IMG/VR virus record: IMGVR_UViG_3300038673_000482
Span: 1 to 40,719 of that record
DNA: 40,719 bases
Origin: a virus
Taxonomy: Duplodnaviria; Caudoviricetes
Direction: 5' to 3' (one strand)
The position numbers and the translations under genes are program-made. Below, piece after piece: positions 9,874-36,330 of this stretch (the stretch's first letter is position 1; each line of letters opens with the position of its first letter). The notes beneath the pieces are model-generated. The model was not told where the DNA came from and ran no database searches. It saw nothing but the letters and a program-made list of their open reading frames with translations.

Positions 9874-11460
9874 CTATTCTTGATGAGATGATCGACTCTT
9901 ACTTATTTGCATTCGTTGATATGCTTCAGGGATCACATCCCAGTGATGGATCACGTCCCGGATCAACTGTTCCCTGTGAGATATTGCCTCTTCTGTGAGT
10001 GGGGCCATACACTTCCCACAAAACTCATTCGTGGGTATGTTGATGTGGTTACAGTTCGGGCATACCCTGGGGCGGTCCTGGACCTCCCTCCTCGGCCTGA
10101 CCTTCTTCGCGACACCTGCCTTCTCCTCGAGTTCTGCATCTATATCCTCGTCCGCGAGGACCCCATAGGTCTTGAGGACCCGAGTGTCGAGGTTGTTCCA
10201 GACACTCTTTTTGATCGTGGTCTCGGAGTATCCGTCCCTGAGCATGTGAGTGACCCGGACCTTCCGAAAGAGGTGAGGGTGGACTCTCTTCTCGATCCCT
10301 GCTCTCTCTGCCATCCCCCTGATGATATACCTCATGGCGTCGTAGGTGAGGGGTCGCCCTCGCTTTGAGTCGATGAATACCAGGGCCTCGGGGTCCTTCC
10401 CCTGGGGGTGGTCCATCCTCCAGGTCGCGACGAGCTGAGAGTATTTGATCACCTTCGAGTGCCTGATCTTCACCCCCGTCTTCTCGTCCCGGATGGTGAC
10501 CGCGATACCTGGGTCGTCGTCTTTCAGGTCCATCCATTTCATCCGGTAGAGTTCCCCGACCCGGGACCCCGTCTCGTAGAGGACTGCGACCAGTGCGCGG
10601 TCTCGGCTGGTGTTCCCTGCCAGTATGAGCCGGTTCACCTCCTCGTTCGTGAGGATCTCATGTGGCATCGTGGTCTGATAGTCCCGGGGGGGGACCTTGA
10701 TCTTCCGGACCTGCTTCTCCTCGAGACCTGACTTCCCATTCTCGATCATCCAGAGTAGGTAGGCTTTCAGAGCCTTGACCCAGTCGTGTTTCGTGTTCTG
10801 TTTGAACGGTTCCCCCCGGGTCGTGGTCCCTGTCATCATCGCACTCACCGCAGCATGAACCTCCTTGATCTTTGCTTTGTGATAGGGGGCCTTGAGGAAT
10901 CGCTTCCAGTAGATGAGGTCCGAGGTGGTTTTGATGACACGGTGGATCTTGATATGCCTGGTTGCGCGGAGCTCCTGGATGAACTCGCGCAGGTCGGCCT
11001 CTTCCTGCTCGTCGATCAGACCCTTCTCGCGCCCCCTAGGGTAGAGACGGAGATACCTCTTCTCGGTAAGACCCGGATAGAATTGAGTGGGGGGTGATCT
11101 CATACCCCTCTTTCTGCGCCTGGTAGGCAATGAAGATTTGCATGAGAGTTGTAGTTCAACCGATAACGCCGAGGGGGAGAGTTCGGGAATGAACTCCAAC
11201 TCCCCTACACGATCCCAGGTCCGGCCGCGCCTGGATCTCCTCTCATATCCGAGCTCCCGCAGGACCCGGGAGATACAATGGAAGAGCCGGTTCGCACCGA
11301 ACCGGGCGACCCCCAGGGAGACAATATCGTCATAGAGTTGTGTGTCGGAGATCACAAGAGGGTATCGGTCGTCCCCACTATGATTGAGAAGGTACTTGAC
11401 CACAAGGGGGCGGACGACGAGGTAGTCCCAGGAGTTTCTCGCGTAGAAATCCCCCGCCAT
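9874..11460 (-). CDS. int: Tyrosine integrase with C-terminal Zn ribbon; in-frame N-terminal extension 11460-11104, core probably from ATG 11103
   Basis: RDRALVAVLYETGSRVGEL, EKT, HPHLFR, W, catalytic Y in KTYG; CPNC...CGKC. Confidence 0.92.
   Translation of the reverse strand: MAGDFYARNSWDYLVVRPLVVKYLLNHSGDDRYPLVISDTQLYDDIVSLGVARFGANRLFHCISRVLRELGYERRSRRGRTWDRVGELEFIPELSPSALSVELQLSCKSSLPTRRRKRGMRSPPTQFYPGLTEKRYLRLYPRGREKGLIDEQEEADLREFIQELRATRHIKIHRVIKTTSDLIYWKRFLKAPYHKAKIKEVHAAVSAMMTGTTTRGEPFKQNTKHDWVKALKAYLLWMIENGKSGLEEKQVRKIKVPPRDYQTTMPHEILTNEEVNRLILAGNTSRDRALVAVLYETGSRVGELYRMKWMDLKDDDPGIAVTIRDEKTGVKIRHSKVIKYSQLVATWRMDHPQGKDPEALVFIDSKRGRPLTYDAMRYIIRGMAERAGIEKRVHPHLFRKVRVTHMLRDGYSETTIKKSVWNNLDTRVLKTYGVLADEDIDAELEEKAGVAKKVRPRREVQDRPRVCPNCNHINIPTNEFCGKCMAPLTEEAISHREQLIRDVIHHWDVIPEAYQRMQISKSRSSHQE
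11167..11180 (-). other. Candidate attP core resembling a tRNA-Ser 3' end
   Basis: TCTCCCCCTCGGCG parses as T-stem 3' strand CTCCC, acceptor strand CCTCGGC and discriminator G; adjacent inverted repeat GAGTTC-N6-GAACTC (11179-11196). Confidence 0.45.
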
Positions 11461-11696
11461 TGGGGAGATATGTCCCTGGGAGAAAAATAGATTAGTCCCT
11501 GGTGGACCCCTGGGAGGGCCGGCGGCCGTTCGGCGGCCGGGTCGGGGTGGAGACCCCGCAGTGTCCTTCACAGGGGCGGCCCTGGACCTTTCCCCCACTG
11601 AATACGCATCCGGCGATACACGGGGTAGTGGCAGACGATCTCCTCGCCATAGTTGGTAGTGGGTAGACAGGGGTTATATATGGGATTCAGGGGGGG

Positions 11697-20626: not shown

Positions 20627-21994
20627 TCAAGACAAGGTCGGGATAGCCCAGACTCCACCCTGCATGGAGAGGCAGGTGGACGTGTCGGGCGAGTAGTCGG
20701 TCTTGTCGATCAGACACTCCGCGCAGGAGATCACGTAGGACTTTGACGTGTTGATGTTGGCGAGCTCCTCGAAGGATTCAGCCCAGAGGACCCGGCGCTC
20801 GATCGTGTCGGTGTTCAGCATGAAGATGTTACCATTCCCGACTGCGTTCGGCATGAACGGGATCGGGATGAGCGGGATGATCCCGTTCGGCATGGCGATG
20901 TTGAGCTTGCTGATACCGTAGGTCGTGGTGACCATGTTGTCGACACCCCGGAACTGGTCGTTGAGTGCCGTCCGGACCCATGCGAACGTCCGATAGTCCG
21001 TCAGCATGACATCAGGGACCTGGTTCGAGTAGACCATCCTCCGGTATACCTCGTTCAGGTCGGGGTAGAGGTATTTCTTCCAGACGACTGCGGGGTCCGT
21101 GTCAGAGGACCAGGAGGTCGCGACCTTCCATGACGGGGAGGCGTGGGTCCTGGTGCCCGTCGCGGCAGTGTGGCCGGTGATCAGCTCGTAGAGACCTGCA
21201 TACTGCTTGGACCCGGCCGGCTGGAATGCGTTCTCGGTGTTCGAGAGGTCGCGGTTGACTCCCAGGAAGGACCGCTCCCTGAGCTGCTTGATCATCTCGT
21301 TCGAGGCCATGGTCCGGATTGACATGAGGTCACGGGCCGGGGTCTGGGCCTCGCCGGCGAGGATCGCCATCTTGGTGAGCCTGCCCTTCGAGTACATGAT
21401 CTTGACCGGAGTCATCTTCGTGATGTCTCCCAGGTCGGACTCGACGAGCTCCGGGTCTTCGCCATCGAAGTAGGCGGACCCGCCTCCGTTCGGGGTTACC
21501 GCGTCCCACTGGGCGTATTTGCCCTTACAGGCGACGGTGTTGAACAAGGTCTGGGTCGGAAGGATCTTCTTGAAGAGGATCGTGACCTGCTGGTCGCTGA
21601 TCGAGTGCATCAGGTTCGTATTGGTTGTCGTGGTTGCCTTCCGGATGTCATTCTCCGGAGCCATGATGTTGTCGATCTCGTCCAGGAGATCCATTTTTGC
21701 CTTCGAGATTTTCTTCTCGGTCTCTTCCAGAGTAGTGTCATAGAGGATCCCTGCCTTGATGATGTTCGGGTTGATGTAGTCCATCACCGGAATGATCACC
21801 TTGGCATGGGGGTCCGCCTCGAGGGTCGCGAGGAATCGCTCGGTCGCGAACTGGGTCGCCTTTGAGATGTCGACCATGTCGCCGTCTTCAATGTCACGGC
21901 CCCAGAAGGACCGGCCCCTCTGCCTCAGCTCATCAGTGGAGAGACTGAACGGAGCTCCGAACGTGGTGAGGGTCGGGTGTGCTGCGAGTGCCAT
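20627..21994 (-). CDS. Major capsid protein (HK97 fold) with probable cleaved N-terminal region
   Basis: Follows the protease; 455 aa; E.SFLG.N....F..YAGLYELI and PDVMLTD..T; GAGGT RBS. Confidence 0.85.
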   Translation of the reverse strand: MALAAHPTLTTFGAPFSLSTDELRQRGRSFWGRDIEDGDMVDISKATQFATERFLATLEADPHAKVIIPVMDYINPNIIKAGILYDTTLEETEKKISKAKMDLLDEIDNIMAPENDIRKATTTTNTNLMHSISDQQVTILFKKILPTQTLFNTVACKGKYAQWDAVTPNGGGSAYFDGEDPELVESDLGDITKMTPVKIMYSKGRLTKMAILAGEAQTPARDLMSIRTMASNEMIKQLRERSFLGVNRDLSNTENAFQPAGSKQYAGLYELITGHTAATGTRTHASPSWKVATSWSSDTDPAVVWKKYLYPDLNEVYRRMVYSNQVPDVMLTDYRTFAWVRTALNDQFRGVDNMVTTTYGISKLNIAMPNGIIPLIPIPFMPNAVGNGNIFMLNTDTIERRVLWAESFEELANINTSKSYVISCAECLIDKTDYSPDTSTCLSMQGGVWAIPTLS

Positions 21995-22000: not shown

Positions 22001-23137
22001 TTACCTCTGCAAAATCTTCTCTATCCGGGCCATCGTCGAGAGGGTCCCGGTGCCGGGGGGTGTGTTCGTCTTGCCGTCCAGGGAGGGCTTTGCCCCCTTC
22101 GCGATCGTCGGGTCGACCACGATCGTCCGGACCTGGGGGGTCCGCTTCTTGAGCTCGTTGAGCTCGGCCTCGAGGGCCGTGATACGGTCCGCCTGAGCCT
22201 TCACGATCGAGGGGTCAACCTTCTGTTCATCCTGGGGGACGTCCTCGGCTTTCTTGACCTCTTTCTTGTTGAGGCCAGTGCATTTCTCGAGGTCGTCCTC
22301 CTTCGCGACGTCGTCGAGGCCGGTCCCCTCTGCCTTCTCGACCTCCTCCTGGGCGGTCGGCGGGGGGATCGGCGGGAGCTCGTCCTGACCTTCCTCTGTC
22401 ACCTCGTTATCTCCTCCCCCGACCCCGAGGTGATCGGAGATCGCCATCACGGCCGAGAGGATCTCTTCCATGATCTCCTCTGGGCTCCTGGGGGCGTCCC
22501 CAGGGCCTCCGTCGACGGGAGGAGCTGCTGAATCTACTCCTGGTTCGTCCATCTTCCTGATTCTCCTTGTTCCATCCACCGTGGGGTGGATGAGCGCTGA
22601 TCCGCCAGAGGTCATCGCCTTGACGATCTCGACGAATGTGGTGCGATTCTTTCCGGTCCCCCTGGGGCAGAGGGAGATACTCCAGAGATACATCGCCTTG
22701 GTGATACAGGGCGAGGTCCTCTTATCGGCCGGGATATTGCATTCCCGGCTCCCTGCCTTGCGGGTCCCGAAGATACTCCACTCGTCGATCTCGCCTTTCA
22801 CGATGCCGTGCCAGATGTCATCAGTGTCCGGGGTTGCCTTGATCTCTCCCTCCACCTCAAGACCTCGAGTCACCTTCCCGTCAGAGAGGGTCACTTCGCC
22901 GTATCGGGCCTTCGTGATCCATCCGATCGGCCTCTCACTGTGATAGTAGTGGATGATCGGCAGGGCCATGAAGTCCTCAAGGGCCTTCGTGATCGCTCCT
23001 TCGGCGATGATCTCTTTCTCTCGGTCCATGGAGGGGGTCGTCGCGACGCCCCAGATCTTACGAGACTTGCCGTCGGTCGAGTGGTTGAGTTTAAACGTGA
23101 AGAGAGGATCCTCCTCTCGAGAAGCTCCGATCGGCAT
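22001..23137 (-). CDS. HK97-type prohead protease fused to an acidic scaffold-like region (start revised to MPIG)
   Basis: IWGVATTPSMDREKEII, IHYYHSERPIG, GEIDEWSIFG, LWSISLC; coiled-coil C-terminus; TTTATAA promoter 32 nt upstream. Confidence 0.85.
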   Translation of the reverse strand: MPIGASREEDPLFTFKLNHSTDGKSRKIWGVATTPSMDREKEIIAEGAITKALEDFMALPIIHYYHSERPIGWITKARYGEVTLSDGKVTRGLEVEGEIKATPDTDDIWHGIVKGEIDEWSIFGTRKAGSRECNIPADKRTSPCITKAMYLWSISLCPRGTGKNRTTFVEIVKAMTSGGSALIHPTVDGTRRIRKMDEPGVDSAAPPVDGGPGDAPRSPEEIMEEILSAVMAISDHLGVGGGDNEVTEEGQDELPPIPPPTAQEEVEKAEGTGLDDVAKEDDLEKCTGLNKKEVKKAEDVPQDEQKVDPSIVKAQADRITALEAELNELKKRTPQVRTIVVDPTIAKGAKPSLDGKTNTPPGTGTLSTMARIEKILQR

Positions 23138-23347
23138 TGATACTCTGGTATCGGGCAGAGTGTTATAAACAGGAATTAAAAGCAGGGTTTTACCCCAGGG
23201 GGTCAAGGTGGCATCTTGACAGGGTTGTTATCCCCCTGGGGGAGGCTTTCCCATATGTCGAAAAGAGAGGAGGGGTCCCCCGACCACCCTCCTCATACCC
23301 GGGTTATCCGGGCCAGTTATATACTGGAATGAGCACACCTACAGAGC

Positions 23348-23635
23348 ATGGCAGAGTTAAGTGATATTGTGAAGCTCCTCGTGGCAGGGGGCCTCGCAGG
23401 GTTCGGGGTGGGGCTCCTCGCCTCGCCGGTGTTTATGATGATGCTTGCCCCTGGAGTTATCAATCCGATCGTCGACCTCATCGGGGCCGCGATCGTGGCG
23501 GCTCCTTGTGTGATCATCGCAGGGTGGATCTGGAAAAGAGTTGGGGACCGTGATGGCCTGAACGATTTTTATGGAGTCACGATCCTCGGGGTCGCCCTGG
23601 TTACCATCTTCGTGAAGGTCACGTTCTATATGTGA
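23348..23635 (+). CDS. Small membrane protein (about 3 TM), antisense to the head operon
   Basis: Very hydrophobic 95 aa; TTATATA at 23317, 31 nt before the ATG. Confidence 0.7.
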   Translation: MAELSDIVKLLVAGGLAGFGVGLLASPVFMMMLAPGVINPIVDLIGAAIVAAPCVIIAGWIWKRVGDRDGLNDFYGVTILGVALVTIFVKVTFYM

Positions 23636-25691
23636 CCTTCCGGACGTCCCCAGGGTAGACGATTGCCTTCTGCAGGGATGCGTCTCCCTCTACAAATTTG
23701 TCACGGTATACATCGAGCACATCTTGAAGGACTTTATTTATCTCTTTTTCGTCGAGCATGTCTGAAAATGTCGTGTATATCTCAGTCTTGATCTTAGCAA
23801 TCGGCCCCCATATCGACTCATCAGGGTGCATGTTCTTCAATGTCCAGAGGTCAGACGCGAGGTTCCAGGTATAGTTATTGTAGTGTATACCCTCCTCCTC
23901 GATTCTCTCTCGATAATGTGGGAACTCGACTTTTTGGGAGAGTTTTCCCCTTTCCTTAATGTTCTTCTTCTCACTTCTGCAGTCGATCTCGTGGTCCCAC
24001 CAGGGGACGCCCTCCAGGTCATCGGGATCGACGGGCTCGACAGTGATCACACGCCATTTAGTGTGGAAATTCCCTCCAGTGGGGAGGGGGACGTTGTATC
24101 TCGCATTTGGCGCGACATTCACATCCTCGATTTTCGTTACCTTGTATCTCATTCCGTGAGGCAGGATATATTCCCACTCCGATCCCCCGAGGTATATCCC
24201 ATGGAGTCCATTAGGGTTGACGATTGAGAGGACGACCGGGAGGCCCTCGGGGTTCCCGGGGGTCTCTGGTTTGACTTTTCCATGAGCGTAGTTCCCTCTT
24301 GCAGTGAATTCAAAACTCGTCCATGGGTCGAGACTCCAGGAGGTGAAGGAGGGGTCGATCAGTATATCCCCTGGGGCGAGTTTTGAGTCATCTTCGACCC
24401 CCAGGGATTTCAGTGAGGCAACGCCATGGAGGATAGGTCGGTCCTCTTCAATTGTTACTCTCTCCATCAGAGCGTCTATTGCCATGACATATTTCTGGGC
24501 TCGGGCCATCTCAAAACTTGAGATCTTCCGTTCCCCGTCCCAGTATCTTCCGTCTTGTCGAAGGGCGGCCTTCATGTAATTGAATCCACTTCCGGAGTAG
24601 TCGGAAATCGCAGCTTTCACATTTTTTGGGAGGCTGTCCAGGGTGTCGTATCTGGGATCGGCCGAGGGGTGTGCCTCTGACCATTTTCTAATCTCCTCGG
24701 CTGTTTCAACGAGATGTTTGTCCTCTCCGACATATCGGTAATGGGGGTGCGCCCAGGAGTGATCAGGGTCGCCGTCATCGTATTTCTTGATGAAGTCCTC
24801 CTCTTTTGAGATGAGCGACCCGCTCGACTGGTAATTAATGAGGGTTGCCACCTTCGCCCAGTCATATTTCCATTTTGGCGAGAACTCTGCTTTCGCATAG
24901 TCGTCCTTCTCCACAATGTCGGCAGTGGCATAATCGGCGATATTCCAGGGGGTAGTATAGGTAGATTGACCCTCTGGTGAGTTCTTTACCATCAGGTCAT
25001 ATAGTGCCCGCTGGAGTGCCTCCTTTCGCAGGATTGGATCGGGCGTTCGCTCGGATTGAGTGTCTCCGCTCAAGATGTTTGGCATGGGGGATTCGGGATC
25101 GATCTCTTTGTACTTCTGTATGAGATGTCTTTGCGCGAGGTCGAACCATTCAGTGATGAATACCCTCCATGCAGTAGAGGGGGTCATCCCGCCTCCTAGG
25201 GAGACGCCTTTGTCAATGATCACTTTGAGGACCCAGTCATACGGGAGTCCTACATTGGGGTCGAAAATAAAGTCCCTGAAATATGTGGACTCCCAGAGGT
25301 ATACTTTATCAAAATTGTCCTGCCCGTCATAGAGTCGGGGGTAGTCCATTCCCTTCTCCGCTAATCCTACCGAGTATATCAGGTTCTCGAGGTTCCAGTG
25401 GAATCGATCAAGGAATTGCGGGGGTGCCTGCTTGACGAAGGGGTAGAACTCCCAGTTTCTCTCCCGGGGGACGTCCCACCCCTCCACGATGAGGGGAGAT
25501 TTTTCCTCATCAGGGACAGCCCCTTGAGATGAAGGTGCTGTCTCCTCCTGGGGCTTTTCTGGTTTCTCGCTCGGGATGTAGTAGACTCCCCCGTGAGGTC
25601 CCTTGTAGAGTTTCGTCCCAGGGGCGACTTTCTGCCCGGGTTTCACGTAGACCTTCGTGACCGGGCCGGCTTTCTCGATCCAGAGGCTCAT
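23619..25691 (-). CDS. ADP-ribosyltransferase (VIP2/Alt-like) effector with an N-terminal motif shared with the portal
   Basis: AISDYSGSGFNYMKAALR, IDALM, PILHGV, GDILIDPSFTSWSLD, GIYLGGSEWEYILPHG.RYKV fit the R-S-E ART pattern, with His in place of Arg. Confidence 0.8.
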   Translation of the reverse strand: MSLWIEKAGPVTKVYVKPGQKVAPGTKLYKGPHGGVYYIPSEKPEKPQEETAPSSQGAVPDEEKSPLIVEGWDVPRERNWEFYPFVKQAPPQFLDRFHWNLENLIYSVGLAEKGMDYPRLYDGQDNFDKVYLWESTYFRDFIFDPNVGLPYDWVLKVIIDKGVSLGGGMTPSTAWRVFITEWFDLAQRHLIQKYKEIDPESPMPNILSGDTQSERTPDPILRKEALQRALYDLMVKNSPEGQSTYTTPWNIADYATADIVEKDDYAKAEFSPKWKYDWAKVATLINYQSSGSLISKEEDFIKKYDDGDPDHSWAHPHYRYVGEDKHLVETAEEIRKWSEAHPSADPRYDTLDSLPKNVKAAISDYSGSGFNYMKAALRQDGRYWDGERKISSFEMARAQKYVMAIDALMERVTIEEDRPILHGVASLKSLGVEDDSKLAPGDILIDPSFTSWSLDPWTSFEFTARGNYAHGKVKPETPGNPEGLPVVLSIVNPNGLHGIYLGGSEWEYILPHGMRYKVTKIEDVNVAPNARYNVPLPTGGNFHTKWRVITVEPVDPDDLEGVPWWDHEIDCRSEKKNIKERGKLSQKVEFPHYRERIEEEGIHYNNYTWNLASDLWTLKNMHPDESIWGPIAKIKTEIYTTFSDMLDEKEINKVLQDVLDVYRDKFVEGDASLQKAIVYPGDVRKVTYRT

Positions 25692-26017: not shown

Positions 26018-26884
26018 TCAGTTCATCTCCTGTTTTTTCGTCGTCTTCTTCTTCTGTTTCGTCGCCGGCTCTTCCGGCCCCTTGAACTTCGGGCCGATCG
26101 TGCATCTGCAATTGATCACCTGCGCGAGGTCCGGCTGGAATGAGACGTCCCCGGGATACATCATCTTGCACCCTGGGACGGTCTTCGACCCGGGCGTCGG
26201 CTTGAACGAGGGGACCTCGAAGGGTTCCTCGACCGGGACGATCTTGTGGTGCATCTCCTTGTGGCTGTCCCGGGTCCGCTCGGAGGGGACCGTCGCGATC
26301 CACATCTTGTAGGGGGCGTATTTCCGGATCCTCTCCCAGGCGGCACGGTTATAGGCCTGGTTGATGCTCGTCCGAGCGATCATCTCTGCCCTGGGAAGGC
26401 CGATTGAGTTGAACTGCTCGGTGATGTCCCTCGAGATCCGGGTGATCCCGAGTCCCTGCTTGTCCGCGTCGATGATGGTTCGCATGACCTTCCTTCCCAG
26501 GTCTGCATTGATCCCTTTCAGGTCCGCGAGGCTGAGCTTGGCGAGCTCGTCGATGGCCTCCATGTCGGGCCGGGTCCAGTCGACCCCGGCGACGAGCTTT
26601 GTCTCGTATATTGGGGCCTGGGCCTGGACCTGCCCGACTGTGTAGTCGACCCCGCGCTCGTATCCCAGCTTGACGAACATCTCGATCAGGGCCTTCCCCT
26701 TGACCTGGAGATGATAGTTCAGGGACCGCTCGATCGCCCTCTCAAGCTCCTCCAGGTCGAGGGGGCCGGGGGCGATCACGATCGGCCTGATGTTCATGAG
26801 GATACTCTCCCGGGACCGGCGTAATGTTCCGAGAAGCTGCTGCAGATACAGAGTCCGCAGGGGTCGGACTGGATCAATAGCCAT
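26018..26884 (-). CDS. MuF / SPP1 gp7-like minor head protein (no toxin extension)
   Basis: RAEMIARTS..QAYN, KMW, RTRDSH...H, MMYPGD, INCRCT. Confidence 0.92.
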   Translation of the reverse strand: MAIDPVRPLRTLYLQQLLGTLRRSRESILMNIRPIVIAPGPLDLEELERAIERSLNYHLQVKGKALIEMFVKLGYERGVDYTVGQVQAQAPIYETKLVAGVDWTRPDMEAIDELAKLSLADLKGINADLGRKVMRTIIDADKQGLGITRISRDITEQFNSIGLPRAEMIARTSINQAYNRAAWERIRKYAPYKMWIATVPSERTRDSHKEMHHKIVPVEEPFEVPSFKPTPGSKTVPGCKMMYPGDVSFQPDLAQVINCRCTIGPKFKGPEEPATKQKKKTTKKQEMN

Positions 26885-28494: not shown

Positions 28495-28507
28495 TACCTC
28501 TTCCATA

Positions 28508-29272: not shown

Positions 29273-29556
29273 CACGTCGCCCCCTGGGGAGTGGGGGAGA
29301 GGGTAATGATTCCCTCTTTGTCCTGGGAGAGACCGAGGGTCATCACCATCGCCCCCTCACCCAGGAACTCGGCCGCTATGACGTCGTCATAGGTATTCAC
29401 GATCTCGCGCAGTGAGGCAGAGACGACGATCTTCATGACCGCCTGTTTCGCCTTCGGGGGGACGATGGTGATCTTCCATGCCCCGTACTCGGCATTATTG
29501 CCGATCGCCCCGTGCTTCTGCAGGGCTCCTGGTTGTGCGTATGTCATGAGTCTCAC
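29272..29556 (-). CDS. Hypothetical protein
   Basis: ~91-94 aa; GGTGA RBS before MTYAQ. Confidence 0.55.
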   Translation of the reverse strand: MRLMTYAQPGALQKHGAIGNNAEYGAWKITIVPPKAKQAVMKIVVSASLREIVNTYDDVIAAEFLGEGAMVMTLGLSQDKEGIITLSPTPQGAT

Positions 29557-29757
29557 CTATATGATCCGGATGACCTGTCCGGAGTAAGCGGCCTTCTCGA
29601 TCCGGCGGATCTTCCGTTCGACAATTGCGAGGTCCTCAAGGCATTCCTTTTGGGCCTTGGGACTCAAGCCCATTCGAAGTTTGCGGATGTATGCGATCTT
29701 AAACTCGATGAGGGTCGCGAGGGATTCATCCGGGTTGATAGGGTCAGGGTATGCCAT
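29557..29757 (-). CDS. Small helical hypothetical protein
   Basis: 66 aa; directly follows the DUF932 gene. Confidence 0.55.
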   Translation of the reverse strand: MAYPDPINPDESLATLIEFKIAYIRKLRMGLSPKAQKECLEDLAIVERKIRRIEKAAYSGQVIRII

Positions 29758-30669
29758 TTAGGCCACCACCGGGACGGGGATCGGGATGACCTCCCCGAAC
29801 AGGATCTTCGACTCGGCATTGGAGATCAGGGCCTCGCGCTTGATGTGAGAGACCTGCTCATGGGAGGCATATGCCGTGATGGCATTGTAGAGCTCCCATT
29901 TATTCGTCTTCTCCGGGTTGTCGATCTGCAGGGCGGCAACGTCCGCGATCTTCTTGCTCTCGGTGATCGGCGCGAGAGTGTTCGCGATCTCCGCATAGTC
30001 CTTGAACGAGACTTTCGCCTCGATCGCGGCCTCGATCTTGACCTCGAGGAGATGCGAGCGCTGGAGGATCCCGTCGATGAAGGCCTCGACCTTCTCGGGG
30101 ATCGCGAGGACCTGCTTCTCGGTGTGCCAGGCCGTGATTACCAGCTCACCGAAGGTCTTGGTCGCGAGCATCCCGTTCGCACAGGCAAGACGCCATCCGA
30201 AGGCACTGCCTTTGAACGACTTCTTGTCGTTATACTGGTTCTTGAACCGGACGCCCATCTGGATCCCGTCCTGGTGATCGTTGACCATCAGGTCGGGGAA
30301 GAGGATGAACGCCTCGACGACGTCGTGATGGTTGTCGATGTTGATCAGGGTATTGAGGCCCAGGTGGTCGGCAGCCGTCAGGACCGGGTCGAGTGCGTCC
30401 TCGTGGTTGAGGGGCATGTAGTTCTTTGCGGCCCCGAAGTGGATCTGTCCTGTGTTGAGGTTTTTCAGACCGTATACCTTCGGGGTCTGCTTGAGGGACC
30501 CATCGACGAAGAGGTGTCCGTCGTCGTTATACCCCAGGATCTTGTTGTCGAGCTTGGGGTCGAACGGGACTTTTTCATAGAGCGGCACGAGGGCGGCCTT
30601 GTCAAGGCCGGCGAGGACTCCCTTCGCATCGGAAGGGGTCATGTCCTTGAAAGAGTTGATGCTGAACAT
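29758..30669 (-). CDS. DUF932-like protein
   Basis: NY.PLNH...L, N.Y....SF.....GWRLACANGM, T.WH, N.WELYNAIT.Y.SH; GGAGG RBS. Confidence 0.8.
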   Translation of the reverse strand: MFSINSFKDMTPSDAKGVLAGLDKAALVPLYEKVPFDPKLDNKILGYNDDGHLFVDGSLKQTPKVYGLKNLNTGQIHFGAAKNYMPLNHEDALDPVLTAADHLGLNTLINIDNHHDVVEAFILFPDLMVNDHQDGIQMGVRFKNQYNDKKSFKGSAFGWRLACANGMLATKTFGELVITAWHTEKQVLAIPEKVEAFIDGILQRSHLLEVKIEAAIEAKVSFKDYAEIANTLAPITESKKIADVAALQIDNPEKTNKWELYNAITAYASHEQVSHIKREALISNAESKILFGEVIPIPVPVVA

Positions 30670-30744
30670 TTTTGTTCCTCCAAAACAGTTCCGAAAAAAT
30701 GCCCTTTTCTGGGTTTGACCCGACGCCCTGGGGCGGAAAAAGGG

Positions 30745-31299
30745 TTATGCTGGTATTGGTATGAGGGGGTTGTGCAGGGGGGAGACGAGGCGGTTGATCC
30801 TCCAGGAGGACCCTGCCTCGATGATGTGAGGGGGGTCGAGGGTGTGCTCGTATAGGTCGTCAATCTCCTGGGAGAGGTGCCAGGCCTCCCGCTTCGCACG
30901 GGCGAGGACCTTTGCAGGGTGGGGACCCTCGATGATCGCGACGAGCTCGAGCTCCCATCCGGGCTCGTCCCAGTAGATGTCAACGAAGGAAGTCTTCCCC
31001 TCCTTCCTGGGGATGAGTTTCAGGGTCCCGACGAAGGTCTTGACGTCCTCGAGAACCTCCTTCTCGATGTAGGGGCCAGTGTAATAGCCATACATATTGA
31101 AGGCCTTGGGGTAGTGGTTCAGGTCCGGAACCTTCTTGATCACGGACTTGGTCTCATAGCGATACACGGGAAGGGACAGGTCCTTCCCGACCGGGGGGAC
31201 CGGAAGTTCAATCTTTGGAGGGCTCCGGTCCGCCCAGTGTGCCGGGGACCAGCGTCCCCGGTTCGGGAAATCATCGTGAGAGGGGCTTGCGTAGGTCAT
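30745..31299 (-). CDS. Hypothetical protein
   Basis: 184 aa in the early island. Confidence 0.6.
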   Translation of the reverse strand: MTYASPSHDDFPNRGRWSPAHWADRSPPKIELPVPPVGKDLSLPVYRYETKSVIKKVPDLNHYPKAFNMYGYYTGPYIEKEVLEDVKTFVGTLKLIPRKEGKTSFVDIYWDEPGWELELVAIIEGPHPAKVLARAKREAWHLSQEIDDLYEHTLDPPHIIEAGSSWRINRLVSPLHNPLIPIPA

Positions 31300-31498
31300 A
31301 TCCAGTCATTTCCTTAACGTGTTGGTCGAACGATCTCCAGTGCCGGCCCCGGCATTTCTGCCGGGAGATGTCAAGCTCGACCTGGAAGATCCTGCAGAAC
31401 TCATGAGGCCCCCAGGAGAGGGGGTCTCGGGGTGATTGCTCATAGAACAGGCAGTCATCACAGCTTTTTCGCATCGGCCGGGACGCCATAGACGGCAC
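31271..31498 (-). CDS. Cys-rich microprotein
   Basis: CDDC.FY...C...C. Confidence 0.5.
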   Translation of the reverse strand: MPSMASRPMRKSCDDCLFYEQSPRDPLSWGPHEFCRIFQVELDISRQKCRGRHWRSFDQHVKEMTGYDLRKPLSR

Positions 31499-31606
31499 CT
31501 CCTGGGGTGACGAGTCGGCCTCCGATGAAGGCTCCCTCGACCCAGAATCCTCCGATAGTCCCTCCGATTTTGTCGTGGTCCTTGAAGGATTTCTTTTTCT
31601 TCATGG

Positions 31607-31903
31607 TCAGTTCACCTCCTCGAATCCGACGTCATCGACCTGGTAGAGGGCCTCGGTCCCGGTGTCGAGAATCACGTCCCCGACGGACAGGGACCGGGAG
31701 ACTCCTGCGAGGGCAGGGCCGATGTTGGTCAGTTCATACAGGTGGTCAAGGTTATCGGCGACGACGAGACCCGCGTGATACCACCCTGGGGAGGGTGTCC
31801 GGGCATATTTTGATGACCGGGGATAAATCACGTCATCCCTCTTAAGGTCCGGATTGAACCGGAAAGAGGGGTCAAGGGGGTAATAGAGACGATACAGAGG
31901 CAT
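31607..31903 (-). CDS. YodL-like domain protein
   Basis: LDHLYELTN.......RSLSVGDVI.......YQVDDVGFEEV. Confidence 0.8.
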   Translation of the reverse strand: MPLYRLYYPLDPSFRFNPDLKRDDVIYPRSSKYARTPSPGWYHAGLVVADNLDHLYELTNIGPALAGVSRSLSVGDVILDTGTEALYQVDDVGFEEVN

Positions 31904-31905
31904 AG

Positions 31906-32040
31906 TTACCAGGCCCCCAGGGGGTAACTCGGGGAGATACCCGGGGGGAGGGGGATGTCAAGCAGCTCAGCGTAGGCGTCTTCGGCCGCAGAGGCATGAA
32001 CGAAGCGCCAGAAGTAGTCATGGGTTTTGGTGTCAAGCAT
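31906..32040 (-). CDS. Small hypothetical protein, first gene after the structured leader
   Basis: Hand-translated, 44 aa; AGGTGA RBS. Confidence 0.5.
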   Translation of the reverse strand: MLDTKTHDYFWRFVHASAAEDAYAELLDIPLPPGISPSYPLGAW

Positions 32041-32319
32041 TTCAGATCACCTGTCTCCCCTGGGGGGGACGCACCCCGCCCAGGTGGAGGGTAATCTTCT
32101 CCAGTCAGTTCCCTCTTCGGTCAGGTCCCCGAAATGACCTTCATCCCCAGACCCCGGGCATCGGAAGCGACGATCTCCTCTCCGGTTCACCCCCCGAATC
32201 CCTTGGTCGAGCGCCCTGTTCTCCGAGTCTTCCCCGGCAGGGTCACCCTGCGAAGTCCTCACTGGGGGGTGACCATCGCGAGGAGCCCCGACCGGGCTCC
32301 CCCGGGCCATCCACAATAC

Positions 32320-32343
32320 TACTTACTACTCACTACTATATAA
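32320..32343 (-). promoter_or_regulatory. Promoter TTATATA followed by GTAGTGAGTAGTAAGTA (20-bp direct repeat with 32715-32734)
   Basis: tacttactactcactactat is exact at 32320-32339 and 32715-32734; a degenerate copy lies at 28506-28525. Confidence 0.7.
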
Positions 32344-32441
32344 TAGTTATGCCCCCTGGGGGGAGGAATGGGGGTCAGAATGGAGTCCGATTGGATGGCG
32401 GAAGTAATATTTATATACTGAAAAAAGAGAGGTGCCGCACC

Positions 32442-32699
32442 TTACTGGGGGGGTGCCGCACCCTGGGAGACGGGCGACTTGCTCTTGATATAGTGGTCGA
32501 TCTTGTTCATCACCTCGGCGGCCTGGGACTCGTCGATTTTTGTATAGTGCATGTAGGCACTCGACATTCCCATCCAGAGCTCGAATCCGTGGTCGTCATC
32601 CGCCCATTTTCCATTTCCATGATAGGATTGGAAGGCATCAGCATCCCAGTCGCACCGGACCAGGCCGAGGCCGCTATCGTGCATCATGTATTTCCACAT
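32442..32699 (-). CDS. Putative immunity protein for the portal-borne RelA/SpoT-like domain
   Basis: Immediately downstream of the toxin-like domain; own promoter and AGGTGA RBS; small, aromatic-rich, with C-terminal YTKIDESQAAEVM. Confidence 0.55.
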   Translation of the reverse strand: MWKYMMHDSGLGLVRCDWDADAFQSYHGNGKWADDDHGFELWMGMSSAYMHYTKIDESQAAEVMNKIDHYIKSKSPVSQGAAPPQ

Positions 32700-32730
32700 G
32701 GTTCTCACCTGCCTTACTTACTACTCACTA

Positions 32731-35700
32731 CTATTTAGTCTTATCCCAGTGCCAGTTCTCCATCCTGGGGGGATACTTACAAGACTGGTAGATCTCCTTG
32801 ATCTTTGCTTTGGCGGCATTTTTCTGTTCTCTCGTCGCAGTCCGGCTCCTCGCGACCTCATACCATTTATGGGTCCTCTTTTGCTTTATCTCGTAAGATT
32901 CTGGGGTGTGGAATTGGAGCTCGACCTGTTTCCCCTCGATGAGGAGCTTGACGTTGACGCCTTTATAGCATCCCTGCCCCCACCTCCAGAAGTTTGAGAC
33001 CTTCTCCACCTTGACCCCGCTTCCCTCGAGGTCCGCGAGGGTCTTCATCATCGTCTCCTGGTAGGTATAGGGGGAGATGATAGAGGTGAACCTGGTGACA
33101 TCATCCACATACTGGACAAGCTGGTCCTCGGTCAGGTGTGGGTGTCTGGCATGTTCGATCTCGAGGGCCTCGTGGATGGAGTTCCAGGTCTTGAGACGGA
33201 AGTCGAGACCTGCGAATGCCCCCCCGTTCTTGACGACTGCTTTTTTGAGGGCCTTATAGTTCTTATCGACCCGTTCCCGGCCATCCTTATAGATGGCGTC
33301 TGCATGTTGCTTGATCTTCTCCGGGTCGATGGTGTATTCCGGTTTCTTCTCCTCCTCTTCCTTCTTGACGTCCTCGGTGCGTTCCTTATCGAAGTTGATG
33401 TTCAGGGAGAAGTTGACGGTCCCGTTCCTCCCCTCGAGGTAGACGGCTGTAAAGTCCTCATCTGCATTAGGCTGGACCCAGGAATATCCTTCTCCCGTAT
33501 AGGCCGCGCCGATGTTGTCCCCCCGGGTGACGATCATCTCGTTCTGCCCGTGATCGCAGAAGAGGACTGTCGACTGGTTCATCTTCTTCCCGAGCTCGAC
33601 GATGTCGTCTCGATCGGCGTCGTGGGTCATCACGAGGAACGAATCCTCGAACTCTCCATACTTCCCGAGGACCTGGGTGAAGACATACCCCTTCTCGGTC
33701 AGGTCTTTCCTGAGCTCATCATGCCGCTTTTTATATCTCTCCTGGTCGAAGTCCAGGGGGTTGAGTTTCTTCTCGTCATTGTTCGGTCCTGCGGAGATCA
33801 GGGCAAACTTCGTGTGGGCGAGGATGATCGCGAGCTCGTCCTCATCAGCGATCTCGGTCTCGATTCCCTTCCCAGGTTCTCTCTTCGCATACTTCCGGAG
33901 GATCTGGTCGCGCTCCTCGGCAGTATACTTCTTCCCCGGTTTCCCTCCTCCCCCCTCCTGGGGCGAGGGTTTCCCTTCCTGACCTTCTTGATCCTGTGAT
34001 CCTGGTCCTCCCAGGGCCGGTTTGTTGGGGTCGACTCCCTCCCTCTCCGGGAGGGGTGTGTCCCCTTTCTGTTTAGGGGGTGATTGGAGGGTCGTCGCGT
34101 GTTTCGACCTCTCAAGATAGAACCTGCCTCCTCTCTCCCCCTCGTAGACCTTGACTCCCTGGGGGGGTTCTTCTCCGGGCTTGAGGTAGATGGGTTCGGC
34201 CTTCTCGATCATCTCGTCGGGCTCAGTCTCATCGTCCCCTTTTCTCACGGCACCCCCGACATGAACTGGGACCTTCTTCTGACCTTTCTTCCGGAGGTCC
34301 CATTTCGTCTCGTGTTTCGACGCCCCCTGGGCTCCCTTGTGCGATCGGTGCGTGACGTGATCCTCTCTCTCTGGGGCATAGTCCCGCTTATAGTCTGCCG
34401 CGCCCTGTGCGCCTCCAGTTGGCGCATGGGGTCTCCTGGGGAGTGTGGTCGCCTGGTGTTCCTTTGAGAGGTCCTCATACTTCATTGGTTCGGGCCGACC
34501 GACCTTCGGGACCTCGCTTTTGAGATAGTAGACTCCGCCCCTGGGACCCCTGTAGAGCTTAGCGCCTTTCGGGACCTTGCCCGGCTGCGCGTACTCGATC
34601 CGGTCCTCCGGCATGGAGACCTTCACTCTCTTTACCCTGCCGAAGTCCTTATGGTCTTCATACTCGCCGTCGTCTGCCTTCTTGACTTTGTCGCGGTCCT
34701 CGTCACTTCCCTCGTGTTCCTGGGAGGTTGCGGACCCGAAGTTGTCACGGTTATAGACCTGGGGGCCTCCCAGGTCCTCGTCTCCCTCCGCATAGAACTG
34801 GGCGGCCTCGTCTGGGGAGAGCTGCTGTCCTCCCTGGGGGTTCGTGTTCAGTCCGCCTCCCGGGCCTGGGGGACCCATGGGTCCGCCCCCGCCTTCCATC
34901 CCCTGGTTCCATGCTGCTTCCTGGGCCTCCTCCATCGCACTGACAGCCCTCTCGATCTTCTCGTCGTCGAGTCCTGCGATCCGGAGCGCGGCTTCGAGGG
35001 GGACCCCGAGCTGCATGTAAGTCGTGGCGACCTGTGCCCGGGCCTGGTCGATCTGGGCCATCTTGAGCTCGTCGTCGAGGTCGACGACGTCCTTGAACCT
35101 GAACCTCCATCCCGGCTCCCACCCTTCAATGTCGGGGAGGAGGTTCTCATTGATCATCTCCTCGAATTTCCGGAGAAGGGGGCTGAGCATCCGGCTCTTG
35201 GTAATGTTTCTCGCGACGTATGCAGTGGCGCGGTTCACGTCGTCACCGACAAATTCGGAGGAGGAGAATCCGAACATCGCCCAGACGATCTTCGCGACCC
35301 ACATCTGGCCCTCGAGCCATTGCATGTCGACCATGGTCGGCGTGAGGGGTTCGATGTCCTCCTCCCCGATCAGGTTGACGACCCCGTTGAAATTTTCCGG
35401 CCCCAGATTTGCAGAGTTCAGCTCGGCGTTCGCTTCGATGAGCTGGGAGACACTGGTATACTGGGGGTGCTTGTATTTCATCCCGGGCATGACGCCGTTC
35501 GCGAAGGTCATCCCTGCGGCCTTAGTGGAATCGATCAGATACTCGAGATACCACTTGAGCTGCTGCATGAAGTCAGTCCCGTAGCAGGAGTCCGCCCTGG
35601 GGTAACAACAGAAATAAACGACTTCCTTCGGGTCGAACGGGATGAAAATCCCTGCCCGGGCGTGTTGCCAGTATCGCTTGACGTATCCCAGGGAGTAGGG

Positions 35701-36330
35701 TCCCTCATAGACGAGACCCATCTCCCCCGTGATCCCTCGCCAGTCTCGATCGATCTCGACCCAGAACTCGGGTCCGGAGTAGGCCTTGAACTCAAGGAGG
35801 ACCTGCCGGCCGGAGGTGTCGGGGAGGCTCAGAGTCTTGACCCAGGCCCCCGCATCGTATCTGATCACGTCCCGGGCCGTCATCTTGAGGAGGGTCGGGA
35901 AGGTGTCCTGGGGGTTCGGTCGTTTCAGGAACTCGATCGCCCTCTCGACCCGCGTCTCCTTATGGTCAATCACCTCCCATTCGACGATCCCGAGATAGTC
36001 CATGACGCCTTTCTCGCAGATGGCGAATATCGGGTTCCTCGCAAGCCTGTCGTTGTCTGCCTGGAAGAATCCCTCTCGATAGATCCCGTATATGCCCCAA
36101 TAAGCATTTACCGAGGCGACGGCCTTCCGCATAGCGGCCCCGGTGACGGGGTGGTCTGTGTGCTTTTCCCCCCCGTTGCCGAAATACTTCTCGAATCCTG
36201 TAGTGGGTCTCGATTTCCCCTCTGCCCCTCGGAGGGTGTTCATTCTCTGTTTATACCCCGGATCATGTTCCGGGAGGGAGGCTTTTGTCTCCCCCAGGAG
36301 GTGGTCCCGGAGGAATCCGACGAGGGTCAT
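32731..36330 (-). CDS. Portal protein fused to a linker with two GPxGG motifs, a DUF3293-like domain and a RelA/SpoT-like nucleotidyltransferase
   Basis: Portal (~aa 1-470): L.RPNP, YG, F.NG.MPG, DMQWLE, IVWAMFG. DUF3293-like: FALISA...ELRKDL..KGY....GKYGE.EDSF.V...ELG...NQ..VL. RelA-like: GLDFRLKT..S, DDVTRFT, NFW...YKGVN, VELQFHTPESY..K...H.WYE..R. Confidence 0.88.
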   Translation of the reverse strand: MTLVGFLRDHLLGETKASLPEHDPGYKQRMNTLRGAEGKSRPTTGFEKYFGNGGEKHTDHPVTGAAMRKAVASVNAYWGIYGIYREGFFQADNDRLARNPIFAICEKGVMDYLGIVEWEVIDHKETRVERAIEFLKRPNPQDTFPTLLKMTARDVIRYDAGAWVKTLSLPDTSGRQVLLEFKAYSGPEFWVEIDRDWRGITGEMGLVYEGPYSLGYVKRYWQHARAGIFIPFDPKEVVYFCCYPRADSCYGTDFMQQLKWYLEYLIDSTKAAGMTFANGVMPGMKYKHPQYTSVSQLIEANAELNSANLGPENFNGVVNLIGEEDIEPLTPTMVDMQWLEGQMWVAKIVWAMFGFSSSEFVGDDVNRATAYVARNITKSRMLSPLLRKFEEMINENLLPDIEGWEPGWRFRFKDVVDLDDELKMAQIDQARAQVATTYMQLGVPLEAALRIAGLDDEKIERAVSAMEEAQEAAWNQGMEGGGGPMGPPGPGGGLNTNPQGGQQLSPDEAAQFYAEGDEDLGGPQVYNRDNFGSATSQEHEGSDEDRDKVKKADDGEYEDHKDFGRVKRVKVSMPEDRIEYAQPGKVPKGAKLYRGPRGGVYYLKSEVPKVGRPEPMKYEDLSKEHQATTLPRRPHAPTGGAQGAADYKRDYAPEREDHVTHRSHKGAQGASKHETKWDLRKKGQKKVPVHVGGAVRKGDDETEPDEMIEKAEPIYLKPGEEPPQGVKVYEGERGGRFYLERSKHATTLQSPPKQKGDTPLPEREGVDPNKPALGGPGSQDQEGQEGKPSPQEGGGGKPGKKYTAEERDQILRKYAKREPGKGIETEIADEDELAIILAHTKFALISAGPNNDEKKLNPLDFDQERYKKRHDELRKDLTEKGYVFTQVLGKYGEFEDSFLVMTHDADRDDIVELGKKMNQSTVLFCDHGQNEMIVTRGDNIGAAYTGEGYSWVQPNADEDFTAVYLEGRNGTVNFSLNINFDKERTEDVKKEEEEKKPEYTIDPEKIKQHADAIYKDGRERVDKNYKALKKAVVKNGGAFAGLDFRLKTWNSIHEALEIEHARHPHLTEDQLVQYVDDVTRFTSIISPYTYQETMMKTLADLEGSGVKVEKVSNFWRWGQGCYKGVNVKLLIEGKQVELQFHTPESYEIKQKRTHKWYEVARSRTATREQKNAAKAKIKEIYQSCKYPPRMENWHWDKTK

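Follow-up and report, generated by a model that had tools for sequence, protein, structure and literature searches.

To our knowledge, known phage SAM lyases are small stand-alone proteins that are produced early in infection. They are regarded as counter-defence enzymes that aid infection (PMC7877911, PMC12255297). A different kind of viral enzyme is found in the Apk2-IapK-Aph1 system, where an alarmone synthetase forms the C-terminus of a head protein of a temperate virus, namely MuF (1-3 copies per particle), and a small Tis1/IapK-like gene follows immediately downstream (PMC10083569, PMC12226406). The nearest solved folds are SaEAS (PDB 8VX3) and Tas1/Apk1-Tis1 (PDB 6OX6), which are exported via Sec or T6SS. 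The surveys by Iyer et al. (PMC5512222, PMC9503650) describe RelA/SpoT domains fused to MuF as well as portal fusions of PBECR, 2H, InPase, Nudix and ART domains, for which injection is proposed; the passages covered here mention neither a portal-RelA/SpoT or portal-SAM lyase fusion nor a protease-release motif. Prohead proteases use a single motif to cut both portals and ejection proteins, and in SPN3US gp245 one short motif (AXE) is repeated across capsid propeptide, protease and portal, where the cuts take off N-terminal propeptides (PMC10052503).

The locus described here lies in a window of 40,719 nt (the whole stretch of viral DNA that was analysed) and is, in our judgement, a variant of these virion-borne polymorphic effector systems, its delivery and activity being predicted (Table 1). 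It shares with Apk2 the synthetase signature, the C-terminal position on a head protein, the temperate virus and a small gene downstream, which here resembles Tis1/IapK weakly. However, the carrier is the portal with its 12 copies instead of MuF, the virus has a separate short MuF free of a toxin, the host is likely archaeal, a second predicted enzyme precedes the synthetase, the syn1 lysine is lost and no aph1 was found, a gene that is also variable within the Apk2 family (PMC10083569). Our literature search found neither a virion-borne SAM lyase nor an archaeal-virus synthetase of the (p)ppApp type whose active site is altered.

Table 1 Features of the portal locus and related genes in the window
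Feature	Position	Strand	Basis or remark
Integrase	9874..11598	-	attP core 11166-11180 = 3' end of Methanoregulaceae tRNA-Ser
Major capsid protein	20627..21994	-	motif sites: 4 within aa 1-125, 0 within aa 126-455
Prohead protease, S78-like, scaffold-like C-terminus	22001..23206	-	weak Pfam match; 9 motif sites
690-aa protein, IEKA and GxRGG module, then weak ADP-ribosyltransferase match	23619..25691	-	
Short MuF, 288 aa, without toxin extension	26018..26884	-	separate gene
20-nt repeat, copy 2	32320..32339	-	after TTATAT, before conserved non-coding element
Hairpin and T-run, terminator-like, at end of immunity gene	32422..32442	-	2 found vs 1.8 by chance
85-aa protein, likely IapK/Tis1-type immunity protein	32442..32699	-	GGTGA ribosome-binding site; weak profile match
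20-nt repeat, copy 1	32715..32734	-	overlaps portal stop; after TATA-like word, before GGTGA ribosome-binding site
Portal protein and 729-aa cargo tail	32731..36330	-	single ORF, 1199 aa, 136 kDa
Predicted Apk-type small alarmone synthetase domain, aa 1001-1199	32731..33330	-	alignment, fold; syn1 lysine replaced by A1055
Predicted SAM lyase (SAMase) domain, aa 825-985	33376..33858	-	Pfam, fold matches; G889/Y891/E895/S897/Q919
Low-complexity linker, aa 471-824, likely disordered	33859..34920	-	composition, alignment
Second YxxPG...GxRGGxFY module, aa 715-738	34117..34188	-	directly after IEKA
Candidate site IEK-A, aa 708-711	34198..34209	-	cleavage predicted
First YxxPG...GxRGGxYY module, aa 580-603	34522..34593	-	sequence
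Candidate prohead-protease site VKK-A, aa 549-552	34675..34686	-	first after portal; cleavage predicted
Portal core, PF04860, aa 123-423	35062..35964	-	Pfam E 4.6e-17

The portal fusion and its likely host

The conserved portal core ends near aa 470. The 729 aa that lie beyond agree with the about 730 aa of the original prediction, and the motifs it had read at the end of the tail were found again (RLKTWNS at 1045-1051, DDVTRFT at 1076-1082, YKGVN at 1122-1126 and ELQFHT at 1137-1142), as was SIHEA in place of SxxRK. Its statement that the carrier is the portal and not MuF also holds, since the carrier matches PF04860 and MuF is a gene of its own.

The fusion is uninterrupted in relatives at 96, 78 and 66% identity. 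It is encoded as one ORF in 3/3 homologues from the tail-query search (P0003, P0004, P0005) and at the loci L001, L003 and L004, and a 7.3-kb contig from an independent study covers 31900-35529 across the junction; the insertions and deletions among those listed cancel. The portal fusion, for which a check had been proposed, is therefore genuine and no sequencing error. That an assembly or sequencing artefact joined the portal to an unrelated gene finds no supporting evidence and, in view of full-length independent homologues and the independent contig, has a negligible probability. The dN/dS values were 0.02-0.08 for the portal core (aa 60-470), 0.07-0.10 for the SAM lyase domain, 0.07 for the 85-aa gene and 0.12-0.17 for the synthetase domain, which is thus under purifying selection.

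The nearest provirus is integrated in a Methanoregulaceae tRNA-Ser and has an identical attP core. Hence, the assignment to an archaeal virus stood, and this is likely a temperate virus of methanogenic archaea of the Methanomicrobiales. Searching 50,697 phage records with the portal core gave no match. A tRNA-Asp call at 30569-30657 lies antisense within a DUF932 gene and was taken as false.

A predicted SAM lyase in the tail

The original prediction was right in what it observed and partly right in its reading. It overlooked both a predicted SAM lyase and candidate protease release sites, and its virion delivery, toxicity and killing of non-lysogens are predictions, put too strongly in part. 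Its DUF3293-like domain corresponds to a weak Pfam match at aa 862-922 (E 7e-4, under the cut-off), and the SAM lyase reading of aa 825-985 is the better one. PF23780 reached 28.0 bits with the isolated domain, which is borderline as it equals the curated cut-off of 28, and it was unreported in the whole-protein scan; the ESM Atlas score was 0.90. Although the model is middling (pLDDT 66), both VIA and Foldseek recovered the ferredoxin-like SAM lyase fold with it. VIA gave Z 9.8 with the T3 enzyme 7ock_L (rmsd 3.4, 131 aligned), the sole chain with a Z of at least 8 among 48,161, and SAM lyases occupied Foldseek ranks 1-2, that of T3 being first, at an E-value of only 2.5e-3. A PDB sequence search with the domain returned no match.

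The likeness to T3 SAMase (8BB1, 7OCK), Svi3-3 (6ZM9) and PF23780 consists of the fold and the active-site motifs G-x-Y, E-x-S and Q. The counterparts of the Svi3-3 residues G56, Y58, E69, S71 and Q104 (PMC7877911), mapped via the motif and not by superposition, are invariant in 7/7 rows. In contrast to T3 SAMase and Svi3-3, the domain forms part of a virion protein, occurs in a likely archaeal virus and lacks the counterpart of Glu105, which is S920 here and E in the homologues P0118, P0268 and P0269; the exchange E105Q lowers activity just threefold (PMC7877911). Sequence and model together thus predict a phage-type SAM lyase, which makes aa 825-985 a candidate anti-defence enzyme. A specificity for SAM-AMP, as in AcrIIIB4 (PMC12255297), may also be considered.

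A predicted Apk-type synthetase without the syn1 lysine

The synthetase domain was modelled with a pLDDT of 95.7. SaEAS took Foldseek ranks 1-4 (E 5e-11, query TM 0.71-0.82) and Tas1 rank 5, and the top matches among 41 phage records are Apk2 MuF proteins from phages of Pasteurella, Mannheimia and Streptococcus, which have the apk2-iapK-aph1 layout. This bears out the Apk2-like identity proposed before, while a Pfam scan of the isolated domain gave no significant match. The catalytic or ATP-binding residues D121, R124, K154, N169, E182 and Q184 of SaEAS (PMC12691689) align to D1077, R1080, K1110, N1126, E1137 and Q1139, so that every residue named as such in that paper is retained in the 1199-aa portal. 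The signature of syn2 D..R(Y/F)T, syn3 Y.G.N, syn4 E.Q(Y/F)H and syn5 H is present, and the Apk signature RYT/GxN/YH (PMC12226406) takes the form RFT/GxN/FH.

The exception is syn1 (R.K...S...K), where R1045, K1047 and S1051 are kept and the final lysine is A1055. This lysine is present in 145/148 homologues and in the aligned characterised enzymes SaEAS, Tas1 and three Apk2, but absent from all portal-type members, i.e. from a whole clade that sits on a long branch (0.72, SH-aLRT 98 in a quick tree). The arginine position of SxxRK is also without R in Tas1 and holds E in 14/148 homologues; within this motif, the loss of the lysine alone appears unusual. In P0005, R1161 is missing as well and P stands at the K1110 position. 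No passage on what the syn1 lysine does turned up in a literature search. Its natural loss, at 98% conservation, offers a test of the residues that an alarmone synthetase requires.

We predict that aa 1001-1199 form an ATP-consuming (p)ppApp synthetase toxin, and activity is put as a prediction because a near-universal lysine is lost throughout the clade. Pyrophosphorylation of tRNA seems less likely than (p)ppApp synthesis, since the form of the Apk signature and the small gene resembling Tis1-like antidotes, which partner (pp)pApp-making enzymes (PMC11782079), disfavour it. It is rather unlikely that the domain has a changed chemistry or is a pseudo-enzyme, so that the SAM lyase would be the main active cargo. 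Without the syn1 lysine it may bind nucleotides, hydrolyse ATP or modify tRNA or another acceptor, and the clade-wide loss on a long branch, an acidic residue, D1076, fixed next to the catalytic D1077 and the missing Aph1 partner would suit this, but the retained SaEAS residues, the intact Apk signature and the antidote-like neighbour argue for the (p)ppApp synthetase.

No Pfam portal domain was detected in 37 long synthetase representatives, and the portal profile of the family recovered only P0005 among 150 representatives of 2524 matches, among which further portal fusions may exist. The synthetase profile had 0 matches in 401 Methanomicrobiales genomes, a search run without positive control.

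The downstream 85-aa gene

The 85-aa gene adjoins the portal gene as stated originally, and the proposal of an immunity-like neighbour gained modest support. An IapK profile, low in diversity, scored the protein at 7.4 bits, a value reached by 2/2000 shuffles and 0/466 decoys from the window, and the orthologue at L004 is the top target of this profile (10.4). The Atlas Tis1 score was 0.76. Neither a Tis1 match in a Pfam scan nor any match in a PDB sequence search was obtained, and hhalign against immunity proteins, with shallow profiles, gave a probability of 3.5%. Thus, the protein resembles IapK/Tis1 immunity proteins weakly, yet above controls, and is likely the antidote. The gene lies downstream of the synthetase tail at L001, L003 and L004 and was not found in the provirus with a different tail. 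No match to the Aph1 hydrolase (PF13328) was obtained in the genome.

The claimed own promoter is putative, its signs being a TATA-like word and the 20-nt repeat. The promoter scan used a sigma-70 model whose scope excludes archaeal promoters. The core of the terminator-like hairpin is retained at L004.

Candidate protease sites and proposed delivery of the cargo

The linker is mostly missing from P0005 in the alignment. The first candidate site has VKKA, IQKA or IEKA at the same position in P0003, P0004, P0005, P0006 and P0118. The motif [IVLM]xK-[AGS], defined post hoc from the very sequences tested, clusters at the tail borders and within both protease and capsid propeptide: portal, ORF107, ART690, protease and capsid together hold 26 copies vs 8.5 expected, 21 other proteins together 13 vs 14.9. 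The Methanoregulaceae provirus keeps the motif though the flanking letters differ. The motif is also enriched in homologous portal cores (206 vs 123, from non-independent sequences), and one copy (LKKA 1028) sits within the first helix of the synthetase domain. No site was seen between SAM lyase and synthetase and no conserved one inside either domain.

This clustering suggests that the prohead protease probably frees the cargo tail at xK-A sites. A cut at aa 708-711 would yield a 56-kDa SAM lyase-synthetase fragment. Compared with SPN3US, the motif contains lysine and the predicted outcome is release of a C-terminal enzyme cargo. The YxxPG...GxRGG module also occurs at the N-terminus of the 690-aa ART protein and before the SAM lyase in P0268 and P0269, and its second copy in the tail is possibly a head-targeting or DNA-binding tag.

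The portal is a dodecamer with the C-terminus towards the capsid interior, and therefore up to 12 tail copies could be packaged. For the following course of events we see about an even chance. The tail would enter the head attached to the portal and be cut free by the protease; the fragment of 56-74 kDa would trimerise via the SAM lyase, giving 4 trimers from 12 copies, and pass into the next cell together with the DNA. There, destruction of SAM might blunt SAM-dependent restriction-modification or BREX before viral genes are expressed, and the synthetase, probably slowed relative to Apk2 by the loss of the syn1 lysine, would convert ATP to (p)ppApp; this may briefly stall or stun the host until expression of the immunity gene sets in. 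In the producing cell the 85-aa protein would block the synthetase, and lysogens making the antidote continuously would presumably be protected.

In HK97, the capsid propeptide and the protease are normally destroyed. Since the motif marks these parts here, one could assume that the protease sites merely strip the tail from the head and the cargo works within the producing cell, where a late-made tail would drain SAM and ATP against host defence or metabolism, or would serve the provirus as a toxin-antitoxin addiction module. A producer needs the antidote in either model, and MuF-toxin delivery is itself still a hypothesis (PMC5576092, PMC10083569). However, the motif-free stretch from SAM lyase to synthetase matches survival as one fragment, and the fusion to a 12-copy head protein and the presence of the KA/GxRGG module both on the ART protein of the head operon and on stand-alone SAM lyases fit packaging, so that we consider action confined to the producer unlikely.

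If the tail is packaged and ejected, destruction of SAM would shift from an early-gene to a pre-loaded strategy. Delivery of MuF-type toxins has been hard to demonstrate at 1-3 copies per particle, whereas the 12 copies of a portal carrier, a cut site that can be predicted and a product of 56 kDa bring packaging and ejection within direct reach of virion proteomics.

Swappable tails in relatives

The original prediction had suggested a survey of portal C-termini for polymorphism. The N-terminal carrier stays constant while the C-terminal domains vary: among the tails of the 30 closest portals, 4 have SAM lyase plus small alarmone synthetase (SAS), 8 a JAB-like motif and 5 an ART domain (PF03496), the others being different or short. 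In the two tail types with context, the small gene differs with the tail, the 85-aa gene accompanying SAS and a 79-aa CxAFP gene ART/JAB-like tails. We tentatively picture the portal as a twelve-round magazine of swappable enzymes, whose SAM lyase-synthetase would hit SAM and ATP at entry, and hold this broader view to be possible rather than probable.

Polymorphic tails with differing small genes would also be expected of a weapon against neighbouring non-lysogens, with virions or lysates killing competitors and lysogens being immune, as originally proposed, and virus-encoded toxins that kill uninfected archaea are a precedent (PMC8628083). Yet a SAM lyase helps infection (PMC7877911, PMC12255297), killing of fresh hosts squanders it and the synthetase looks attenuated, which makes such a weapon very unlikely.

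The 690-aa ART protein (E 0.005, weak; phrog_3895, E 4e-5) is a probable second head cargo. In G002 only its first 46 aa match, which had pointed to another swapped slot; a transposase-like ORF (an unscanned reading) and other genes take the place of the remainder there, and this reading was therefore dropped. The habitat labels are digesters and wastewater; if the predictions are true, SAM-lyase counter-defence and (p)ppApp chemistry would reach methanogen viruses of these habitats.

Portal fusion

Directly after the large terminase gene, a single open reading frame encodes 1199 aa, in which the Pfam portal match covers aa 123-423 and conservation among relatives stops near aa 470, so that a tail of 729 aa remains. 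This portal-tail fusion is genuine. With the tail as query (957 candidates), three proteins were returned, all of them full portal fusions, with overall identities of 96, 78 and 66% to the window portal. The portal ORF and the small gene are intact in loci L001, L003 and L004 (L005 ends inside the portal ORF), and one 7.3-kb contig from another study spans 31900-35529. Together, the full-length homologues, intact loci and separate contig rule out sequencing error as the source of the fusion, and the synthetase motifs quoted in the original prediction are present in the ORF. The MuF protein of the virus itself is short. Portal and MuF lie ~5.8 kb apart; the stretch between them contains non-structural genes, a block that is not the same in the related Methanoregulaceae provirus.

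Features of the window and of related loci
Feature	Position	Strand	Description
Portal ORF	32731-36330	-	1199 aa
Small gene	32442-32699	-	85-aa ORF after portal, GGTGA ribosome-binding site
Non-coding element	32030-32320	-	~290 nt, after second 20-nt repeat
Non-structural block	26900-32000	-	YodL-like, DUF932, DUF6011
690-aa ART protein	23619-25691	-	Head operon; starts with IEKA + GxRGG module; weak ADP-ribosyltransferase match
attP core	11166-11180		15 nt inside integrase gene; identical to 3' end of host tRNA-Ser(CGA)
N6/N4 DNA methylase match	4698-5342	-	Short, C-terminal part of profile only; possibly split
Second MuF copy, provirus	L010:10361-10948 / G003 19627-20121	- (L010)	Inverted, partial; right after immunity-like gene
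Short-tailed portal region, genome G323	L025:7904-17366		Portal, then directly large helicase- and methyltransferase-like genes

The predicted synthetase domain

The C-terminal domain (aa 1001-1199) matches SaSAS/SaEAS (E 1e-7) and a MuF-type PHROG (E 6e-19) in sequence. It also matches 41 records of isolated phages, topped by MuF proteins from phages of Pasteurella, Mannheimia and Streptococcus, with 27-33% identity among the 40 matches listed; all three loci inspected have the layout apk2-iapK-aph1. The Foldseek comparison that had been proposed as a check placed the model (pLDDT 95.7) closest to SaEAS, then Tas1, followed by RelP, CapRel and Rel. The SaEAS residues named in PMC12691689 align to D1077, R1080, K1110, N1126, E1137 and Q1139, all of which are kept, and RFT, GxN and FH correspond to the adenosine-type RYT, GxN and YH of PMC12226406.

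The last lysine of syn1 (SxxRK) is present in 145 of the 148 homologues drawn from the top 150 of 2524 hits, the exceptions being P0118, a member of the window's own clade, and two divergent rows. This position is occupied by alanine in the window, P0003, L001, P0267 and P0118, by serine in P0004 and by glycine in L004 and P0005. Tas1 keeps the lysine and lacks the preceding arginine. The lysine binds the donor-ATP phosphates, and its loss was counted against synthetase activity; our literature search found no account of its role. An altered or dead synthetase, to which this loss points, is nevertheless unlikely in view of the retained residues. The dN/dS of the domain is 0.12-0.17. We consider it reasonably probable that the domain is an active (p)ppApp maker. 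A quick tree built from 95 of the 154 rows of the alignment groups the four portal-type domains on a single long branch (0.72, SH-aLRT 98), separate from the Apk2 group. Two MuF chains, P0119 and P0120, each carry two synthetase domains and an ADP-ribosyltransferase.

The predicted SAM lyase domain

The middle domain had been described as DUF3293-like, but it is better read as a SAM lyase. Scanned alone, aa 825-985 match PF23780 (S-AdoMet_lyase) with 28.0 bits, exactly at the cut-off; the homologous fusion P0003 has the same precomputed family, and in the nearest three ESM Atlas clusters (0.90) PF23780 occurs in 48-91%. The model is moderate (pLDDT 66, built from 7 sequences), with T3 SAM lyase (E 2.5e-3) and Svi3-3 (E 7.7e-3) as the first two Foldseek ranks. 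Among 48,161 chains, T3 SAM lyase alone reached a Z of at least 8 (Z 9.8, 131 residues, rmsd 3.4). Substrate contacts of the SAM lyase Svi3-3 are G56, Y58, E69, S71 and Q104; E69 is essential and E105 contributes threefold (PMC7877911). G889-x-Y891, E895-x-S897 and Q919 are invariant in all seven aligned rows, and the place of E105 is taken by serine in the window and by glutamate in P0118, P0268 and P0269. Its dN/dS is 0.07-0.10. The domain very probably belongs to the SAM lyase family. SAM lyases overcome restriction-modification as well as BREX, and the CRISPR signal SAM-AMP is cleaved by a related enzyme of phage origin (PMC12255297).

P0268 and P0269 are SAM lyase cargo without a portal: a CxAFP immunity-like N-terminus is followed by VKKA, the GxRGG module and a SAM lyase whose QES motif is canonical. 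The window virus also carries a candidate SAM consumer, the methylase match listed in the table.

The small gene and its surroundings

By eye, the 85-aa protein can be aligned with IapK proteins. An IapK profile of 34 unique, mostly streptococcal sequences (from 82 downstream of Apk2) gave it 7.4 bits; 2 of 2000 shuffles and none of 466 six-frame window decoys scored as high, and the top target was the L004 orthologue (10.4 bits). Other comparisons were weak (hhalign 3.5%; Atlas Tis1 cluster 0.76, TM about 0.5), and a Pfam Tis1 scan of the protein gave no match. The gene is under purifying selection (dN/dS 0.07), and no copy was found in the provirus whose portal has another tail. Apk2 genes are described as always having a tis1-like neighbour and variably aph1 (PMC10083569); no Aph1 is encoded in the window genome. 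Tis1-like antidotes are partnered with (pp)pApp makers rather than with tRNA modifiers (PMC11782079). Quite probably, the protein is the putative cognate immunity factor.

The system would work like Apk2-IapK, but it is not an Apk2, since it is carried by a protein other than MuF and its syn1 motif lacks a residue.

An exact 20-nt repeat flanks the small gene (2 copies vs 0 expected), a TATA-like word precedes each copy, and past the stop codon lies a hairpin with a T-run. A separate candidate promoter is plausible from these signals.

None of 200 shuffles of the non-coding element further downstream folds as well as the element itself (z -2.8), and its conservation in L004 is high despite ~60% divergence at synonymous sites. 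Rfam gave no match at gathering score, the closest being a weak C/D-box sR39 match (22 bits vs 50). The element was found in one of five related records. It is likely a viral structured RNA.

Proposed release of the cargo

The motif [IVLM]xK[AGS], chosen after inspection of the sequences, occurs 26 times in five head proteins (8.5 expected by composition) and 13 times in 21 other proteins (14.9 expected). The capsid has four sites within aa 1-125 and none within 126-455; protease, portal and 690-aa ART protein have nine, seven and four. Sites are kept in the Methanoregulaceae provirus although the middle letter varies. In portals of this family, they lie directly after the core and between cargo domains; IQKA precedes each of two domains in the related portal L002/P0006, and the deletion in P0005 begins at IQKA. 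The sites are often upstream of a YxxPG...GxRGG module that is also found at the start of the ART protein and of stand-alone SAM lyases. Among homologues, whose sequences are non-independent, the motif is overrepresented in tails (246 vs 138), N-termini (163 vs 28) and also cores (206 vs 123). In the near-identical genome G002, the ART protein is reduced to its first 46 aa, followed by a transposase-like ORF.

HK97-type proteases cut in a lysine-directed manner. In SPN3US, the portal, the capsid and the ejection proteins share one motif at which the prohead protease cuts them (PMC10052503). Cleavage of the tail by the prohead protease at the candidate sites is likely; it would explain how the cargo could leave the virion though the portal stays behind, and how the lyase could form a trimer. 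Ejection into the cell is predicted with slightly better than even chances; an action of the cargo in the producing cell only seems rather improbable.

In the most likely reading, for which we would give about even chances as a whole, as many as 12 tails would reach the inside of the prohead on the portal, and the protease would free a 56-74 kDa SAM lyase-synthetase fragment that enters the cell with the DNA. The injected lyase would destroy SAM, blunting restriction or BREX, the synthetase would make (p)ppApp, probably more slowly than Apk2, and the 85-aa protein would restrain the synthetase-bearing fragment in producers and lysogens. In SSVs, a virus-encoded toxin acts on uninfected archaea (PMC8628083); that the present cargo is a weapon against neighbours is very improbable. 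The original observation is confirmed. Its interpretation is supported in part, and a second enzyme as well as a candidate mechanism of release are added to it.

Polymorphism of portal tails

Portal-fused PBECR, 2H, InPase, Nudix and ART domains and MuF-fused RelA/SpoT have already been described computationally (PMC5512222, PMC9503650), as have MuF toxins (PMC5576092, PMC11699363). In the literature searched (main texts, few subscription papers), we found no archaeal virus reported to encode an alarmone synthetase, and no portal reported to be fused to an alarmone synthetase or to a SAM lyase; the supplements of Iyer et al. may list such fusions.

A search with the portal core returned 115 relatives of 659-2099 aa (shorter portals were outside the search). 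As expected from the original prediction, their C-termini are polymorphic: the 30 closest portals carry SAM lyase plus synthetase (4), a JAB-like motif (8), a PF03496 ADP-ribosyltransferase (5) or other and short tails. The eight were recognized by the regex motif HxH...SxxD, which we take to be JAB-like. Among portals lacking the synthetase, the closest one (84-85% over the core) is followed by a 79-aa CxAFP gene, and its tail appears, in our reading of the sequence, ART-like and JAB-like. Two genome-integrated relatives have short tails.

Many more distant portals (among P0080-P0117) have DUF5661 (PF18905) tails, and three (P0065, P0075, P0079) contain a LAGLIDADG domain. The genes after the short-tailed portal of G323 resemble, in our reading, a restriction system.

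Virus and host

At 40.7 kb, the record is circular and has a terminal repeat of 43 nt. Its closest integrated relative (G003/L010) lies inside a 176-kb contig of 'Methanoregulaceae archaeon UBA467', and has an archaeal thermosome gene among its flanks; of 32 window proteins tested, 26 have a match in this provirus, and their order is unchanged. The integrase of the provirus is split beside tRNA-Ser(CGA). The window integrase is intact and carries the same core, and since this lies within the gene, integration would split the integrase as in G003. Portal core matches were found in 6 of 401 Methanomicrobiales genomes. From the related provirus and the shared tRNA-Ser core, the virus is temperate and its host likely belongs to the Methanomicrobiales; the archaeal host originally proposed is supported. 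One truncated copy (L009) is located in a Patescibacteria bin, which we take as mis-binning. To our knowledge, archaea mostly lack a stringent response; the UBA467 genome has one HD_4 gene. The Methanoregulaceae provirus also contains a second MuF copy (see table).
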